Made by a program: the position numbers and the translations under genes. Under the pieces are notes generated by a model. That model did not search any database, was not told where the DNA came from, and was given only the letters and a program-made list of their open reading frames with translations. Shown piece after piece: positions 26,310 to 34,460 of a DNA stretch of 64,000 nt. Origin of the DNA: Thermoanaerobaculia bacterium (GTDB lineage Bacteria; Acidobacteriota; Thermoanaerobaculia; Gp7-AA8); contig DASXHZ010000058.1 in NCBI GenBank assembly GCA_036488085.1, positions 69,468 to 133,467 on the forward strand, read 5' to 3'. How positions within the stretch are numbered: the first letter of the stretch is position 1; every line of letters starts with the position of its first letter.

Positions 26310-26407
26310 CGTGTTACCCTCCGCCGCCATGATGACCAAGTCCCTTCCTCAGGAGAACGAGTCGATGACGGTCGACTCGCGTCTTTGGCTCTGCCGCTAG
26401 CCAAGCT

Positions 26408-26974
26408 ATTGTCGTAATCGACAACTACGATTCCTTCACCTACAACCTGGTCCAGCAGATCGAACGCCTCGCCGGCGTCTCGCTGACGGTCGTCCGCAAC
26501 GACGCGTTCGAGCCGGCAGCGCTTATCGAAAGCGCGCCGCGCGCGATCGTGATCTCGCCCGGACCAGGGACGCCATCGCGAGCGGGCCGCTGCATCGAGC
26601 TCGTGCGCGCCAATCAAAGCATTCCGCTCCTCGGGGTCTGCCTCGGGCATCAGGCGATCGCCGAGGCGTTCGGCGCGCGCGTTGTTCGCGGCAGCGTTCC
26701 GGTACATGGCAAGGTCACGGAGGTCGTCCATCGCGGTGATCGGCTGTTCGCGAACTGCGACTCGCCGATGAGCACCGCGCGGTACCACTCGCTGGTCATC
26801 GAGCACGAGTCGCTGCCGCCGGAACTGCTCGTCGACGCCGAAACGCCCGACGGCGTCGTCATGGCGGTCTCGCATCGCGATCGTCCACTCTTCGGCATTC
26901 AGTTTCATCCGGAGTCGTACGGCACGATCGGCGGCGATCAGTTGATCCGGAACTTCCTGGAGGTGGCGCGATGA
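26408..26974 (+). CDS. trpG: Anthranilate synthase component II (glutamine amidotransferase)
   Basis: IVVIDNYDSFTYNLVQ, GVCLGHQ and HPES motifs. No in-frame ATG/GTG/TTG between the upstream stop (26366) and the conserved N-terminus, so an ATT start at 26408 is inferred. Confidence 0.8.
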   Translation: MVVIDNYDSFTYNLVQQIERLAGVSLTVVRNDAFEPAALIESAPRAIVISPGPGTPSRAGRCIELVRANQSIPLLGVCLGHQAIAEAFGARVVRGSVPVHGKVTEVVHRGDRLFANCDSPMSTARYHSLVIEHESLPPELLVDAETPDGVVMAVSHRDRPLFGIQFHPESYGTIGGDQLIRNFLEVAR

Positions 26975-27990
26975 TCGACAAGGCGATCAAGCGGGTGGTG
27001 GATGGTCACGATCTCGATCGTGACGAGATGCACACAGTGTTCGGCGAGGTGATGGACGGGAAGGCGACCGACGTCCAGAAGGCGGCGCTTCTCATCGCAT
27101 TGCGGATGAAAGGGGAGACGCCGGAAGAGATCACCGGCGCGGCGCTCGCGATGCGCGAACGGGTGACGCCGCTGAACGTCGACCGCGAAGAGCTCGTAGA
27201 CACGTGCGGCACGGGCGGAGACGGCCGCGGGACGTTCAACATCTCCACCATCGCGGCGATCGTCGCGGCGGCGGCGGGAGCGAATGTCGCGAAACACGGC
27301 AACCGAGCCGTGTCGTCGGCGTGCGGAAGCGCGGATCTGCTCACCGCTCTCGGCGTTGACATCGACCTGGACGCGCCACGCATGTCGCGGGTGCTCGACG
27401 AGATCGGCATAGCATTCCTCTTTGCGCCGAAGCTTCATCCGGCGATGGGCGCCGTCGCGCCGATCCGCCGCGAGCTCGGCGTCCGGACGATCTTCAATGT
27501 CCTCGGTCCGCTCACGAATCCCGCTTTCGCGCGGCGGCAGGTCCTCGGCGTCTACGCGGAACACCTCGTCGCAGTGGTCGCGCGGGTGCTCCTCGCGCTC
27601 GGCACCGACCACGCCATGGTCGTGCACAGCCACGACGGACTCGACGAGATTTCGATCTCGGCGCCGACGCACGTCTGCGAAGTCGTTGACGGTGAGATTC
27701 GCGATTTCACGGTCGAGCCCGAGGCGCTCGGCGTCTCGCGGGCGTCGATCGAGGAGGTCGCCGGCGGCGACGCGGCCGAGAACGCGCGCATCGCGCTGGC
27801 GGTCCTCTCAGGCGAAACGGACGGCGCGCGACGCGACATCGTCGCGGTGAACGCGGGGGCGGCGCTGTACGTCAGCGGCGCGGTCTCGACGCTCCGTGAC
27901 GGCGTGGCCCTCGCGAGCAACACGATCGCGAGCGGCGCCGCCATGCGGAAGCTGGAGCAACTGGTGAGTGCCACGAAGGAGCGTGCGTGA
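26971..27990 (+). CDS. trpD: Anthranilate phosphoribosyltransferase
   Basis: GTGGDG and KHGNRAVSS motifs. Confidence 0.9.
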   Translation: MIDKAIKRVVDGHDLDRDEMHTVFGEVMDGKATDVQKAALLIALRMKGETPEEITGAALAMRERVTPLNVDREELVDTCGTGGDGRGTFNISTIAAIVAAAAGANVAKHGNRAVSSACGSADLLTALGVDIDLDAPRMSRVLDEIGIAFLFAPKLHPAMGAVAPIRRELGVRTIFNVLGPLTNPAFARRQVLGVYAEHLVAVVARVLLALGTDHAMVVHSHDGLDEISISAPTHVCEVVDGEIRDFTVEPEALGVSRASIEEVAGGDAAENARIALAVLSGETDGARRDIVAVNAGAALYVSGAVSTLRDGVALASNTIASGAAMRKLEQLVSATKERA

Positions 27991-28757
27991 ACGACGTACT
28001 GCAGAGAATCGTCGATCACACGAAGGCGCGCATTCCGAACGAGCCCGCCGACCGCGCGGCAGCGGAACGCGCGGCCGCAAGCCGCAAGCCGTTCGCGTTC
28101 ATCAAGGCGCTCGCACGCGAGGGCGTGAACGTCATCGCGGAGATCAAGTCGGCATCCCCCTCGGCCGGCGCGATCGTGGAGAACCCGCCGGTCGAGGCGA
28201 TCGCCTCCGACTATGCGCGCGGCGGCGCCGCTGCGATCTCGATCGTCACGGAGCCGGAGTTTTTCCGCGGCTCCCGAGCATGGATCGAACGCGCGAAAAC
28301 GGCCGGGCTCCCGGTCGTGATGAAAGACTTCGTCGTCTCGCCGTCGCAGATCACGAACGGCGTCGCGGCGGGGGCGGACGCGATGCTGCTGCTCGCCTCG
28401 CTCCTCGACGCACGCCGCATCGCCGAGTTCATCGGACTGCTCGACGCCTACGGCTGCGATGCTCTCGTCGAGGTCCATGACGAGGAGGAGCTGACGCGTG
28501 CCATCGACGGCGGTGCGCGCATCATCGGCGTCAACAACCGCAACCTCCGCGATTTCAGCGTCGATCTCTCGACCTCCGAGCGACTCTCCGCATTGATGCC
28601 GCCGGATGCGATCCGCGTGGCGGAGAGCGGCATCAAGACACGAGACGACATCGAACGCCTCCGCGGTGCGCACTTCCATGCGTTCCTGGTCGGTGAATCA
28701 CTCCTGCGGCAGAATGACCGCGCCGCGGCAGTCGCGGCGCTCGTGAACGAATCATGA
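27987..28757 (+). CDS. trpC: Indole-3-glycerol phosphate synthase
   Basis: IAEIKSASPSAG block and conserved TIM-barrel residues. Confidence 0.9.
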   Translation: MNDVLQRIVDHTKARIPNEPADRAAAERAAASRKPFAFIKALAREGVNVIAEIKSASPSAGAIVENPPVEAIASDYARGGAAAISIVTEPEFFRGSRAWIERAKTAGLPVVMKDFVVSPSQITNGVAAGADAMLLLASLLDARRIAEFIGLLDAYGCDALVEVHDEEELTRAIDGGARIIGVNNRNLRDFSVDLSTSERLSALMPPDAIRVAESGIKTRDDIERLRGAHFHAFLVGESLLRQNDRAAAVAALVNES

Positions 28758-29361
28758 AAGTGAAAATCTGTGGTCTGACTCGCGAGGAAGACGCGCTCTT
28801 TGCCGCCGAGTGCGGCGCCGACTTCCTCGGTTTCATCTTCGTGGAAGACTCGCCGCGCTTCGTCGACGCCGATCATGTGGCGCAGATCGCAGACGCCGTC
28901 CGCGGGCGATCGAATCCACCGAAGATCGTCGGCGTCTTCCGCAATGCCTCGCACGAGCGGATGCGCGACGTCGCCGCCCGCTCCACGCTCGATCTCATCC
29001 AGCTTCACGGCACGGAGCGCGACGACGACATCCCGGCGCTCGGCATTCCAGCGATCAAGACACTCCACGTCGGCGCCGCGCTGCCCGACACGTCCGCGCA
29101 CGCAAACGCGTCGTGGCTTCTGTTCGACACCTACAACGACCGCCTCGCCGGCGGGATGGGGAAGCGCTTCGACTGGTCGCTGCTGACGCAGTTTGAACGC
29201 GCGAAACCGTTCTTCCTCTCGGGCGGCATCACACCGGAGAACGCTGCGGTCGCGATCAGCACGGTGCGGCCCGACGCCATCGATCTCGCCAGCGGCGTCG
29301 AGTCGTCGCCCGGTGTCAAGGACCACGCGAAGATCGCGCAGCTCTTCGAGCGGGTGAAACG

Positions 29362-29365
<4 letters not shown>
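28754..29365 (+). CDS. trpF: Phosphoribosylanthranilate isomerase
   Basis: [10 protein letters not shown]-terminus, PRAI fold. Confidence 0.88.
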
Positions 29366-30532
<1,167 letters not shown>

Positions 30533-30555
<23 letters not shown>

Positions 30556-31333
30556 AAAACTCTTCAAACGACTGCGCGCCGAGGGGCGCTGCGGCGTGAT
30601 CGCGTACGTCACTTGCGGCGATCCCGACGTCGCGGCGACCCCGCGAATCGTCGAAGAGCTCGTGCGCGCCGGTGCCGATGCGATCGAGCTCGGTATCCCG
30701 TTCTCCGATCCGATCGCGGACGGCCCCGTCATTCAAGCCGCCTCTCACCGCGCGTTGGAGCGCGGCGCGACCATTCGCGACCTCTTCGCGATCGCGCGCA
30801 CGATTCGGGAGCAGAGCGAAGTGCCTCTGATCGCGTTCTCCTACCTGAATCCCGTGATGCGCTATGGGATGGAACGCTTCGCGGCCGATGCGGCGGAAGC
30901 GGGCATCGACGGCATCCTGCTCACCGACCTGCCGCCGGAAGAGGCCGACGACACGTTCCGCGACAAGGGACTGGCGTCGACCTTCCTGCTCGCCCCGACG
31001 TCGAGCGACAAGAGGATCGCCGCGGTGGACCGTGCGAGCGACGCATTCGTCTACTACGTCTCGACGACCGGCGTGACCGGCGCACGCCGCGAGCTCGATC
31101 CGATGCTGCTGGAGCGTCTGGTCGAGGTTCGCGGGAAGTTGAGAAAGCCGATCGCCGTCGGTTTCGGCATCTCGCGGCACGAGCACTACGAGCTCCTGCG
31201 CGACAAGTGCGACGCGATCGTGGTCGGCAGCGCGATCGTGCGCGCGATCGACGACGGCGATCCCGTCGAAGCTCCACAACGCGCGGGCGACGTCGTGCGC
31301 GCCATCCTTGACAACGCGCCGATGCCCGCCTAA
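30533..31333 (+). CDS. trpA: Tryptophan synthase alpha chain
   Basis: Conserved TrpA blocks ([21 protein letters not shown]). Confidence 0.9.
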
Positions 31334-31348
31334 CCTCCGCACCCAGTG

Positions 31349-31396
31349 ATGAACACGTTCGCCCCCCGCTACTTTTATTACGGCTACTACAGCTAG
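31349..31396 (+). CDS. Putative attenuation leader peptide MNTFAPRYFYYGYYS (5 Tyr + 2 Phe in 15 codons)
   Basis: 15-codon ORF 16 nt after the trpA stop. Stem-loops follow and a factor-independent terminator sits immediately before the chorismate mutase start. Confidence 0.55.
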   Translation: MNTFAPRYFYYGYYS

Positions 31397-31488
31397 CGCG
31401 GGGCATACGCCCCGACGCAAGGAGGGGCGCTCGATCCGATAAACAATCCAAACCCCTTCTCACGTCGCGACGAGAAGGGGTTTTGTTT
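31397..31488 (+). promoter_or_regulatory. Attenuator RNA. Hairpin GCGGGGC-ATAC-GCCCCG, alternative pairing of GCCCCCCGC with GCGGGGC, and a terminator CCCCTTCTCaCGTCG/CGACGAGAAGGGG followed by TTTTGTTT.
   Basis: Structures read directly from the sequence. The terminator 3' arm contains the GAAGGGG ribosome-binding site of the downstream gene. Confidence 0.55.
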
Positions 31489-31791
31489 ATGAACAGGGTC
31501 GATGCAGAAGTCGAACTGACGCGCCTTCGCGATGCGATCGATCGCGTCGACGAAGTGATCGTCAAGCTCCTCAACCAGCGCGCGAAATACGCGTGCGAGA
31601 TCGGCGAGATCAAGGCCATCCTCGACCTCCCGATCTACGTCCCCGAGCGCGAGAAGCAGGTGCTCGCGCATGCGGAAGAGGTGAGTGCCGGACCGCTCGA
31701 CCCGAGCGCCGTCCGGCGCCTTTTCGAACGCATCATCGACGAGTCGCGCCGCGTCGAGCGCGAATCCGCAGCCACCAAGGAGAACGCGTAA
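31489..31791 (+). CDS. Chorismate mutase (AroQ class)
   Basis: ~100-aa AroQ helical-bundle signature (RLRDAIDRVDEVIVKLLNQRAKYACEIGEIK). The track starts it at a TTG at 31483. Confidence 0.8.
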   Translation: MNRVDAEVELTRLRDAIDRVDEVIVKLLNQRAKYACEIGEIKAILDLPIYVPEREKQVLAHAEEVSAGPLDPSAVRRLFERIIDESRRVERESAATKENA

Positions 31792-32804
31792 TGGTCATCG
31801 TCATGGAAAAACACACCGCTGAAGACAACATCGAGCGGGTCACCGGAGTGCTCATCGAGCGCGGCTTCGACGTCCATCGTTCCACCGGCTCCGAACAGAC
31901 GGTCCTCGGCGTCGTCGGCAATGTCGCCGAGATCGACACGCGCGAGTTCGAGCTGTTCGACGGCGTCCAGGAAGTCGTCCGTATCAGCGAGCCGTACAAG
32001 CTCACCAGCCGGACCTGGAAGAAGGAGAAGAGCGTCGTCCGCGCGCGCGGCGTTGACATCGGCGGCGATCACGTGGTCGTCATGGCCGGCCCGTGCACGA
32101 TCGAAAATGAGCACCAGCTTTTCGAGACGGCAAAGCGCATCGCGCGCGCCGGTGCGCGCGTCCTGCGCGGCGGCGCCTACAAGCCGCGGACCTCGCCGTA
32201 CGCCTTCCAGGGGATGGGCGTCGAGGGTCTGAAGCTCCTGCGGGCCGCGGGCGACGAGTTCGAGATGGCAGTGGTCTCCGAGGTGATGGAGATTTCCCAG
32301 ATCGAAAAGATGCTCGAGTACGTCGACATCCTGCAGGTCGGCGCGCGCAACATGCAGAACTACAACCTGCTGTCGGCGCTGGGGCAGGTGAGGAGACCGA
32401 TCCTCCTCAAGCGCGGGATGTCGGCGACCATTCAGGAGTGGCTGCTCGCGGCCGAGTACATCATGAGCGGCGGCAACTACGACATCATCCTCTGCGAGCG
32501 CGGAATCCGGACGTTCGAGACCTACACGCGCAACACCTTCGACATCTCGGCGATCCCGGTCATCGACAAACTCTCGCACCTTCCGATCGTGGGCGATCCG
32601 TCGCATGCGACCGGCCGGCGCGACAAAGTGGCGCCGGTGGCTCGCGCGGTCGTCGCGGCGGGCGCGGACGGACTTCTCATCGAAGTGCATCACGATCCGG
32701 AGAAGGCGGTATGCGATGGTCCGCAGTCGCTCTATCCCGACCAGTTCGCGCGACTCATGGACGAGTTGCGTATCATCGTCCCCGCCGTGGGTCGCACTAT
32801 TTGA
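31791..32804 (+). CDS. 3-deoxy-7-phosphoheptulonate (DAHP) synthase, type I-beta, with N-terminal ferredoxin-like regulatory domain
   Basis: GPCTIENE, KPRTSPY and IVGDPSH motifs of the KDO8PS/DAHPS I-beta family. Its ATG overlaps the chorismate mutase stop (TAATG). Confidence 0.88.
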   Translation: MVIVMEKHTAEDNIERVTGVLIERGFDVHRSTGSEQTVLGVVGNVAEIDTREFELFDGVQEVVRISEPYKLTSRTWKKEKSVVRARGVDIGGDHVVVMAGPCTIENEHQLFETAKRIARAGARVLRGGAYKPRTSPYAFQGMGVEGLKLLRAAGDEFEMAVVSEVMEISQIEKMLEYVDILQVGARNMQNYNLLSALGQVRRPILLKRGMSATIQEWLLAAEYIMSGGNYDIILCERGIRTFETYTRNTFDISAIPVIDKLSHLPIVGDPSHATGRRDKVAPVARAVVAAGADGLLIEVHHDPEKAVCDGPQSLYPDQFARLMDELRIIVPAVGRTI

Positions 32805-33522: not shown

Positions 33523-34407
33523 ATGACTGGTCGGTTTTCGCGCGTTATCGTCGCAGTTACTCTCGGGCTCTTCGCCCTCGTGCTTCCTGCATCGGCCCAG
33601 CAGTGGACGACGAATAGCTCGACGATGTACGCGGATCCGGCGGTCTCGTTCGTTGGAATCGGCACGACGTCGCCGGCGCCTTACGGGATGCAGATCTTCA
33701 GCAGCACGGGGAACTCGTTCTTCGGCGTAAAGTCGACGTTTGGGCTCGCCGGCTTCATCATGGACCGGAAGGACACGACGGTAGCCTCTTCGCTGAACTA
33801 CCGCACCGGTGGGACTGACACCTTCATCGAGGGAATCGGCGTCTACGGCAGCGGAAGCAACTGGCAGATTGGCAACAACGTTGCCCCTTTCCTGACAATG
33901 ACAACGTCTGGCAACATCGGCATCGGGACGGCGAGTCCGGCGTATGCGCTCGACGTCGCGGGAGCGATCCACGCTTCCAACGTGATCGGCGCGTCCTACC
34001 AGGACGTGGCCGAATGGGTTCCGGCATCGACCGAAATGAGCGCCGGCACGGTCGTCATCCTGAGCCGTGACAAGAGCAACGAAGTGACGCCGTCGTCCAC
34101 CTCGTACGATTCGACGGTTGCCGGTGTCGTCTCGGCGAAGCCCGGAATCATCCTCGGCGTTGCGTCGCCCGATAAGGCGCAGGTTGCGACGACCGGTCGC
34201 GTGCGCGTGAAGGTCGATGCCACCAAGGAGCCGATCAAGATCGGTGACCTCCTCGTAACCAGCGATAAGCCGGGAACCGCGATGAAGTCCATTCCGGTCA
34301 ACGTCGCCGGCATTTCGTTGCACCGGCCGGGCACCATCATCGGCAAGGCGCTCGAGCCCCTCAATTCCGGCGAGGGCGAGATCTTGGTCCTCCTCTCCCT
34401 CCAGTAA
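33523..34407 (+). CDS. Secreted protein with tail-fibre-like GN(I/V)GIGTxSPxYxLDV repeats
   Basis: Signal peptide. Two copies of the NVGIGT(A/T)SPAY.LDV motif. GGAGGAAAG ribosome-binding site. Confidence 0.55.
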   Translation: MTGRFSRVIVAVTLGLFALVLPASAQQWTTNSSTMYADPAVSFVGIGTTSPAPYGMQIFSSTGNSFFGVKSTFGLAGFIMDRKDTTVASSLNYRTGGTDTFIEGIGVYGSGSNWQIGNNVAPFLTMTTSGNIGIGTASPAYALDVAGAIHASNVIGASYQDVAEWVPASTEMSAGTVVILSRDKSNEVTPSSTSYDSTVAGVVSAKPGIILGVASPDKAQVATTGRVRVKVDATKEPIKIGDLLVTSDKPGTAMKSIPVNVAGISLHRPGTIIGKALEPLNSGEGEILVLLSLQ

Positions 34408-34427
34408 ACGCCTCCCGCAAACTACCG

Positions 34428-34460
34428 AGCGCGCGCCGCGAAAGCGGCGCGCGCTTTTTT
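34428..34460 (+). terminator. Rho-independent terminator (GAGCGCGCGCCGC-GAAA-GCGGCGCGCGCT + TTTTTT)
   Basis: Perfect 12-13 bp GC stem with a T6 tract, read directly. Confidence 0.85.

Follow-up and report, generated by a model that had tools for sequence, protein, structure and literature searches.

A candidate Tyr/Phe-responsive leader-peptide attenuator between trpA and aroQ in Thermoanaerobaculia

In an uncultured member of the Thermoanaerobaculia, a class of Acidobacteriota, the last gene of a trp operon, trpA, is followed by the chorismate mutase gene aroQ and by a gene for a DAHP synthase. The locus lies in a 64-kb stretch of DNA, here called the window (the whole stretch that was analysed). 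At first sight trpA and aroQ look like one operon, and the question is what the 155-nucleotide (nt) spacer between them does. A predicted promoter and a predicted terminator lie between the two genes. The initial annotation had read the spacer as a ribosome-mediated attenuator sensing tyrosine (Tyr) and phenylalanine (Phe). Comparison with related genomes supports this reading: the leader open reading frame (ORF), its Tyr/Phe codons and compensatory changes in the terminator stem have all been kept. We consider it probable, at roughly 0.8, that the spacer encodes a functional Tyr/Phe-responsive, ribosome-mediated attenuator of aroQ and the DAHP synthase gene; the exact pairing scheme proposed below is rather likely, at a lower level of confidence. 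The data behind this assessment are sequence features, their conservation, the pairing potential of the RNA, and covariation in two of its hairpins.

A Tyr-rich leader and its conservation

The spacer holds, as had been pointed out from the sequence of the window, a 15-codon ORF with five Tyr and two Phe codons shortly after the trpA stop. It occupies positions 31349–31396 of the forward strand, encodes MNTFAPRYFYYGYYS and ends in a UAG stop codon; its ATG begins at the 16th base after the trpA stop. Seven of the 15 codons are thus aromatic, with Tyr at codons 8, 10, 11, 13 and 14 and Phe at codons 4 and 9. An ORF of 8–30 codons with at least seven aromatic codons arose in only one of 20,000 shuffles of the spacer. 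When both strands of the window were cut into 2,554 tiles, such an ORF was found only in the two tiles covering the leader locus.

For comparison, 80 genomic loci were fetched through their DAHP synthase genes, and aroQ and trpA were located in each. Whether trpA was present or absent was determined by tblastn, because at this GC content ORF calling gave too much noise for naming the relatives' upstream genes. The DAHP synthase of the window is 98% identical to that of the metagenome-assembled genome (MAG) DASXIH01. Nearly every Thermoanaerobaculia locus with enough upstream DNA had a Tyr/Phe-rich ORF ending about 90–100 nt 5′ of aroQ. The orthologous intergenic regions, which the initial annotation had suggested comparing, therefore retained both the leader ORF and its Tyr/Phe codons.

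All leaders in the relatives were 12–21 codons long, with 2–6 Tyr and 0–4 Phe codons each (medians of 4 and 2, respectively), and eight of them contained tryptophan (Trp) as well. In the 53 aligned leaders, Tyr made up 27.4% of the codons, compared with 1.7% in the genes of the window, and Phe made up 11.2% compared with 3.2%. The other two frames of the leader DNA had 4.5% aromatic codons. Rare codons were enriched too: TAT accounted for 28% of the leader Tyr codons (13% in window genes) and TTT for 55% of the leader Phe codons (9% in window genes). Across the relatives the N-terminal residues drifted, and the aromatic run, the reading frame and the position of the stop codon were kept. A functional small protein was rejected as an explanation of the ORF, as what is conserved is the aromatic run and the nucleotides of an RNA segment within the ORF (segment 0, below), and no peptide sequence.

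One part of the leader was also kept at the DNA level. The nucleotide string TTTTATTACGGCTACTAC, encoding Phe-Tyr-Tyr-Gly-Tyr-Tyr (window positions 31376–31390, columns 35–55 of the leader alignment A1), is conserved beyond what the amino-acid pattern requires, down to the rare codons TTT and TAT and a GGC or CGC codon in the middle. Stalling tuned by codon choice and a small local hairpin are two possibilities to account for it.

A covariance model, R1, was built from the 53 aligned leaders (alignment A1). It matched 56 Thermoanaerobaculia loci, whose DAHP synthases were 74–98% identical to that of the window, and it matched the window itself with 114.9 bits (E 1e-32). The model matched none of the 19 loci that carry a Terriglobia, Terriglobales or Acidobacteriaceae label, nor did it match L076, an unclassified Acidobacteriota locus that groups with the Terriglobia-type loci by DAHP synthase identity and gene order. 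The conserved order was leader ORF, stop codon, GGGG(C), GCGCCCC, GAAGGGGCGC, a spacer, ACCUCUUC, a loop, GGGAAGAGG, a U-tract and the first gene's start codon. The window has all of these elements. A typical Tyr-type leader was also found on a 2-kb contig (L013, DASVSS010000327.1; DAHP synthase 86% identical) that is filed under a Tepidisphaeraceae (Planctomycetota) MAG, which is probably a binning error.

The device does not depend on the trp operon. The initial annotation had placed it at the end of that operon, and trpA does adjoin it in the window, but the link is incidental: most leader-bearing loci have no trpA upstream, including the two closest ones, L001 and L002 (98% and 97% DAHP synthase identity), and the unit is predicted to have a conserved promoter of its own. 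The attenuator would therefore belong to aroQ and the DAHP synthase gene, not to trp. In the Terriglobia-type loci L060, L075 and L080 and in the Thermoanaerobaculia locus L033 (about 2590–2630), aroQ directly follows trpA at a distance of a few to a few tens of bases, and these four junctions contain no leader ORF, promoter or terminator. This suggests that trpA–aroQ–DAHP synthase is the more ancient arrangement; the clade-specific attenuator would either have been inserted there or have disappeared from it.

The predicted promoter lies immediately upstream of the leader. Its −35 hexamer (TTGACA, 31308–31313, forward strand) is inside the trpA coding sequence, 17 nt 5′ of the −10 hexamer (TAACCT, 31331–31336, forward strand), which overlaps the trpA stop codon TAA. 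Thus trpA is context rather than part of the device, although its 3′ end carries the leader promoter. A general promoter scan of 24–36 kb, with a rule of at least four of six matches per hexamer, called no promoter. It missed this one because TAACCT has only three of six matches, and the element was recognised through comparison of the relatives. Their shared upstream pattern is cTTGACa, 17–18 nt and TAyyCT, or TGnTAyyCT where the −35 is poor. A TANNNT hexamer, most commonly TACCCT or TACTCT, ended 8–12 nt 5′ of the leader ATG in 49 of 51 related loci. A −35-like hexamer at 16–18 nt was present in 33 of these loci, and either a −35 or a TGn extended −10 accompanied the hexamer in 46. No Shine–Dalgarno (SD)-like tetramer was found 5′ of the leader ATG in any of the 51 relatives or in the window. 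As judged by the promoter geometry, transcription is predicted to start a few bases before the leader AUG, giving a 5′ untranslated region (UTR) of only 2–6 nt, and this would explain why the leader has no SD sequence.

RNA segments, alternative pairings and ribosome position

The RNA from the leader to aroQ can be divided into a chain of six segments, 0/A/B/C/D/E, in which every segment can pair with either neighbour (all coordinates on the forward strand). Segment 0 (GCCCCCCGC, 31361–31369) lies within the ORF at codons 5–7, Ala-Pro-Arg, and, as judged by the minimum free energy (MFE) fold, can pair with A or C when the leader is untranslated. Segment A (GCGCGGGGC, 31396–31404) begins at the last base of the leader stop codon. 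Segment B (CGCCCCGACGC, 31408–31418), which includes GCCCCG at 31409–31414, has A or C as its partner. Segment C (AAGGAGGGGCGC, 31419–31430) contains GGGGCG, which pairs with B as an anti-antiterminator, and AGGAGGGG, which pairs with D as an antiterminator; in the window the antiterminator joins AGGAGGGG at 31420–31427 with CCCCUUCU at 31453–31460. A variable spacer between C and D (31431–31449) forms the antiterminator loop, sometimes has a small hairpin of its own, and shows little conservation in alignment A1. Segments D (AAACCCCUUCUC, 31450–31461) and E (GAGAAGGGGUUU, 31472–31483) are the 5′ and 3′ arms of the terminator. The U-tract (UUUUGUUU, 31481–31488) adjoins the aroQ ATG at 31489 and is the predicted premature 3′ end.

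The consensus segments are common to all leaders, with variable loops in between: CGYGGGGC for A, GCGCCCCG for B, GAGAAGGGGCGC for C, ACCUCUUCYC for D, and GGGAAGAGG plus the U-tract for E. Two kinds of length variation were seen. In L005 (about 2560–2700) and L020 (about 600–745), an extra 140–230 nt lie between the attenuator U-tract and the predicted aroQ start, and L001 (2258–2419) has an insertion of ~22 nt with its own small hairpin in the terminator loop.

Several claims about this region from the initial annotation held up. A strong terminator does end at the aroQ start codon (31450–31488): the D:E hairpin has −21.7 kcal/mol and z = −5.1, a value equalled by none of 200 shuffles, and the fold of the whole window leader has z = −5.2. 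A terminator scan listed the D:E hairpin only on the minus strand. The 3′ arm holds the aroQ ribosome-binding site (RBS), as had been stated, in the form of a purine-rich stretch in E that ends 8 nt 5′ of the ATG. The mutually exclusive hairpins were described only in part: the 0:A and A:B pairings that had been named are present, but the C:D antiterminator and the B:C anti-antiterminator had been overlooked.

The termination conformer, B:C plus D:E, was 95.8% paired across the 53 leaders, a score reached by none of 500 shuffles, and RNAalifold independently predicted the same two hairpins. D:E was 95.5% paired, with compensatory pairs (UA30/UG15/CG8 and CG28/UG19/UA3), and B:C was 96% paired, again with compensatory pairs (CG43/UG6/UA2). 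A run of 5–8 T after the GC-rich stem was conserved in all 53. The antitermination conformer, A:B plus C:D, was 90.5% paired, compared with 50–65% when the partners were slid against each other; its A:B cells were 89% paired and its C:D cells 91.5% (50–65% slid). For pairing between the ORF and A, the duplexes had a mean of −15.1 kcal/mol, compared with −11.4 kcal/mol for shuffles, and z was below −1 in 33 of the 53 sequences.

The spacing of leader and scaffold fits control by ribosome position. In 42 of 53 leaders the stop codon is 3 nt from the GGG of A, which would put A under any ribosome that stands on the stop; the last aromatic codon is one or two codons before the stop in 51. The ribosome was simulated by masking the RNA as far as 12 nt beyond the A-site codon, and for stalls the nascent RNA was folded only to D. 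When the stop codon occupied the A site, and A was thus masked, B:C formed in 48 and the terminator in 45 of the 53 sequences. Stalls at aromatic codons gave A:B together with C:D at 210 of 298 sites, and in 41 of the 53 sequences; irrespective of A:B, C:D was in the MFE structure at 228 of the 298 sites. In the window leader, all seven aromatic-codon stalls gave A:B plus C:D (−29.8 kcal/mol). The stop-codon mask gave B:C plus the terminator there, and the untranslated leader also folded into the terminator, with segment 0 paired to C around the A:B hairpin. These masking folds and the spacing match a ribosome position that selects the fold; this concerns the geometry and not the function.

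His-type relatives, proposed mechanism and rival explanations

The same scaffold occurs in front of a different pathway. Metagenome sequences were scanned with the pattern GAAGGGGCGC-N(18–45)-ACCTCTTC; among the matches listed, two of 80 loci were real (L107 and L159), which is no measure of abundance. In both loci the scaffold stands behind His-rich leaders, MNITRAHRHHHHHRQR and MNTDFAPVHGHHHHHH, 5′ of a hisZ-like gene. Further hisZ relatives were then fetched from Thermoanaerobaculia, giving five loci with four distinct sequences (L202 and L203 are identical over the compared region). All five had a promoter-like element, an SD-less His-rich leader, the A–E scaffold with its U-tract, and hisZ; in L204 and L205, whose contigs extend far enough, hisG comes next. 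Examples of these leaders are MNTTLAHRHHHHHHHVM and MFSVPAQHHHHHHHQR, with the scaffold GGGG / GCGCCCC / GAAGGGGCGC / ACCTCTTC / GGGAAGAGG-Tn. The elements are located at 1054–1201 on the minus strand in L107, 1519–1670 in L159, 1350–1498 in L201, 1340–1499 in L202 (equal to 744–903 in L203), 1257–1407 in L204 and 1346–1498 in L205.

Model R1, trained on Tyr-type leaders, gave seven matches to the His type, with 48–61 bits and E-values of 1e-12 to 1e-16. Both types are found in a single MAG, DATFUW01, as L010 (Tyr type) and L202 (His type). After the stop codon the two are identical at 78 of 89 aligned bases, with an alignment score of 94.5 compared with a mean of 41 and a maximum of 66.5 for shuffled sequences. 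The His-type leaders were folded sequence by sequence, as the R1-based alignment put their segment A out of register. In the simulation of replete conditions, B:C plus the terminator formed in six of six sequences. On an unchanged RNA platform, the codon bias of the leader matches the product of the operon behind it, as ribosome sensing predicts. No other available argument speaks as strongly for the ORF as the sensor.

From the sequences we infer a promoter with its start site, a ribosome geometry, a kinetic trapping of C:D and a response in vivo that would act together as follows. The attenuator would read the charging of tRNA-Tyr, and secondarily of tRNA-Phe, and set the expression of aroQ and the DAHP synthase gene accordingly. 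The unit's own promoter, with its −35 at 31308 and its −10 at 31331, would start transcription a few bases 5′ of the leader AUG. When Tyr and Phe are plentiful, the ribosome would reach the UAG stop and cover A, so that B:C and D:E form, and D:E with the U-tract would terminate transcription immediately before the aroQ AUG. When charged Tyr- or Phe-tRNA is scarce, a ribosome stalled on codons 8–11, or up to 13, would cover segment 0 and leave A free. Free A would pair with B, and C, freed in this way, would pair with D once it is made; no terminator would form, and transcription would read through into aroQ and the DAHP synthase gene. If the leader is not translated, for instance on RNA reading through from trpA, segment 0 would pair with A or C and the terminator would form. 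Such read-through RNA carries the SD-less leader internally, where it is probably untranslated; termination would then be the default, and the hairpin would double as the trp terminator.

Several points weigh against this scheme. At equilibrium, with E present, the terminator of the window is more stable (−40.4 kcal/mol) than the antiterminator (−32.6 kcal/mol), and A:B can coexist with D:E in the folds. Read-through must therefore be a kinetic decision, and the trapping of C:D that this calls for is itself a supposition. The terminator of the E. coli trp attenuator is likewise thermodynamically stronger than its antiterminator, so that the decision there is kinetic. For A:B and C:D, no covariation beyond that of shuffles was found in the 53 leaders, so these two pairings lean on conserved pairing potential; the segments are nearly invariant, as expected when each has two partners. 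Pairing of segment 0 was clear in only about 60% of the members, and A:B plus C:D was the MFE structure in only three of six His-type sequences in the stall simulation. Efficient translation of an SD-less leader with a 5′ UTR of 2–6 nt is an assumption for this phylum. Finally, all genomes compared are uncultured MAGs, and the regulation itself is deduced from their sequences.

Could the locus work without transcription termination? Control might be purely or mainly translational, with D:E hiding the aroQ RBS and leader translation opening or closing it. E does carry the only purine-rich, RBS-like stretch, 8–10 nt 5′ of the aroQ ATG, the U-tract adjoins that ATG, and at equilibrium D:E forms in nearly all sequences. 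Masking an RBS, however, has no need of the T-run that follows the stem in all 53 leaders, which is a signature of intrinsic terminators, and canonical hairpin-plus-T-tract terminators are found elsewhere in this genome (for example at 34427–34456). We regard translational control without significant termination as unlikely. The two layers are compatible with each other: as E holds the only RBS-like stretch before aroQ, transcripts folded into D:E would also be translationally silenced, and both layers together are expected.

Two other explanations fare worse. The near-invariance of B, C, D and E, and their presence in front of operons of unrelated pathways, is unusual for classical attenuators and could mean that a common trans-acting factor, be it a protein, a ligand or uncharged tRNA, binds there, with the small ORF secondary or incidental. 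Such a factor is very improbable. The leader bias changes from Tyr/Phe to His in exact step with the operon that follows, on a constant scaffold, and the region has no T-box, riboswitch or other Rfam match. The invariance would follow from ribosome-mediated attenuation as well, because each segment has two pairing partners and E is also the RBS. The searches behind this statement covered all 4227 curated Rfam models, including leaders, T-boxes and riboswitches: none matched the window at its gathering score, and at E ≤ 10 the region 31250–31560 gave only noise, with no match to a T-box model. A T-box or riboswitch was rejected on this ground. A His-type relative searched at E ≤ 10 gave a sub-threshold hit to Thr_leader (28.7 bits; gathering score 55). 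The hairpin might, alternatively, be a plain terminator that ends the trp operon, with the Tyr-rich ORF a chance frame in the spacer, given that this is the first terminator after trpA and that L060, L075, L080 and L033 have trpA and aroQ with no leader between them. This is hardly credible: loci without a nearby trpA have kept the hairpins as well as the ORF with its aromatic codons, the shuffles put the chance of such an ORF at 1 in 20,000, and a plain terminator has no need of segments A, B and C. It was rejected as contradicted by the comparative data.

Known attenuators and the genes of the locus

The mechanism proposed here is classical; its novelty lies in a specificity dominated by Tyr, in the operon that is targeted, in the phylum, and in a modular scaffold that is shared. 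The logic of a stall leading to an antiterminator and read-through, decided kinetically, is that of E. coli trpL. Unlike the device described here, with its five or six segments, trpL has four segments and an SD-led leader with Trp codons. The his attenuator of Salmonella and E. coli, with its hisL leader, reportedly comprises six segments, A–F (said to have been described by Johnston et al. in 1980). It resembles the present device in its run of cognate codons, in a chain of more than four segments (A:B, C:D and E:F versus B:C and D:E) that decides on the terminator, and in termination when the leader is untranslated. It shows no similarity in sequence or Rfam model, and the leader here is Tyr/Phe-rich, SD-less and promoter-adjacent, with a terminator arm that is also the RBS of the first gene. 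The his attenuator of Thermoanaerobaculia uses the scaffold described here, unlike the enterobacterial hisL. Tyr-specific T-boxes of aromatic genes in Firmicutes bind uncharged tRNA directly and need no translation. They too respond to how far tRNA-Tyr is charged, and they switch between terminator and antiterminator to regulate aromatic biosynthesis; no T-box match was found here.

Leaders that sense aromatic amino acids by ribosome-mediated attenuation are known from E. coli pheA (pheL) and pheST (pheM) (PMC11802643, PMC3082878). The pheL–pheA system shares with ours the aromatic signal and a target containing chorismate mutase. It differs in that pheL has a run of Phe codons and its target is a chorismate mutase–prephenate dehydratase, whereas here Tyr dominates and the targets are a stand-alone AroQ and a type I-beta DAHP synthase. 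The closest functional precedent, as far as its description goes, is aroR–aroF of Corynebacterium glutamicum, from another phylum. As summarised in PMC11802643 after Neshat et al. 2014, a Phe-Tyr-Phe leader lies there 5′ of a DAHP synthase operon, and stalling raises transcription; the same summary reports a response of aroR to Phe limitation but none to Tyr (PMC11802643). The first gene here is that of chorismate mutase, and with 2–6 Tyr codons per leader Tyr should be the main signal, unlike in aroR. Naville and Gautheret (PMC2965389) note that hardly any attenuator predicted in Acidobacteria has been given a function, and in the full-text literature searched, neither a Tyr-rich leader nor any leader-peptide attenuator was described for Acidobacteria or Thermoanaerobaculia.

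With the His-type relatives included, we lean slightly towards a broader view. One modular chassis, made of a promoter, an SD-less leader, five near-invariant segments and a terminator that is also the RBS, may have had Tyr/Phe leaders (aroQ–DAHP synthase), His leaders (hisZG) and possibly others plugged into it. Specificity would then evolve through exchange of the codon run on a platform that is inherited intact, and the Tyr type would be the first attenuator with tyrosine as its primary signal. If true, this is a modularity otherwise associated with riboswitches and T-boxes and not with leader-peptide attenuators. One RNA scaffold with two leader-codon specificities, in one case within one genome, would be a rare natural experiment that shows how attenuators can diversify.

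Next to nothing has been charted of how Acidobacteriota regulate their amino-acid biosynthesis. In a class that is widespread in soil, the leader is a concrete candidate regulator of DAHP synthase, the entry step, and of chorismate mutase, the Phe/Tyr branch point, and the covariance model lets annotators mark such leaders and correct operon boundaries. In DAHP synthases of the Thermotoga type, an N-terminal ferredoxin-like domain mediates feedback inhibition by Tyr and Phe. The attenuator would add Tyr/Phe feedback at the RNA level, 5′ of an enzyme with such a ferredoxin-like regulatory domain.

Pfam and family models confirmed the gene identities: TrpD, TrpC, TrpF, TrpB, TrpA, TrpG, a CM_2 chorismate mutase and a type I-beta DAHP synthase. 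The trpA, aroQ and DAHP synthase genes are on the forward strand. The first regulated gene, aroQ (31489–31791), encodes a chorismate mutase of 100 amino acids (Pfam CM_2, 1.6e-24; also NCBIfam chorismate mutase models). The DAHP synthase gene (31791–32804) encodes a type I-beta enzyme with the N-terminal ferredoxin-like regulatory domain (NF006421, 7e-145; PF00793 and PF18152), and its start overlaps the aroQ stop (TAATG). Upstream lies the trpG-D-C-F-B-A operon with Pfam matches for trpD (26971–27990), trpC (27987–28757), trpF (28754–29365), trpB (29362–30555) and the final gene, trpA (30533–31333; Trp_syntA, 5.9e-78; stop codon TAA at 31331–31333).

The first gene, trpG, was recognised by family-model matches and has an unusual start. 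TrpG aligns with the family models from residue 1 at an ATT codon (26408), and there is no in-frame ATG, GTG or TTG before 26549. Upstream of it is an extended −10-like sequence (TGTTACCCT, 26312–26320), followed 8 nt on by a 23-codon ORF, MMTKSLPQENESMTVDSRLWLCR, which starts with ATG at 26329, has one Trp codon and stops 7 nt 5′ of the ATT. This region (26311–26410) has no terminator and no match to the scaffold model. The ATT could be a non-canonical start coupled to the upstream ORF, or it could reflect an assembly error.

Downstream of the aromatic genes, an ORF at 33523–34407, with no Pfam match, is followed by a very strong canonical terminator on the forward strand (34427–34456). It has a 13-bp GC-rich stem, a GAAA loop and a T-run, which indicates that hairpin-plus-T-tract terminators are in use in this genome.

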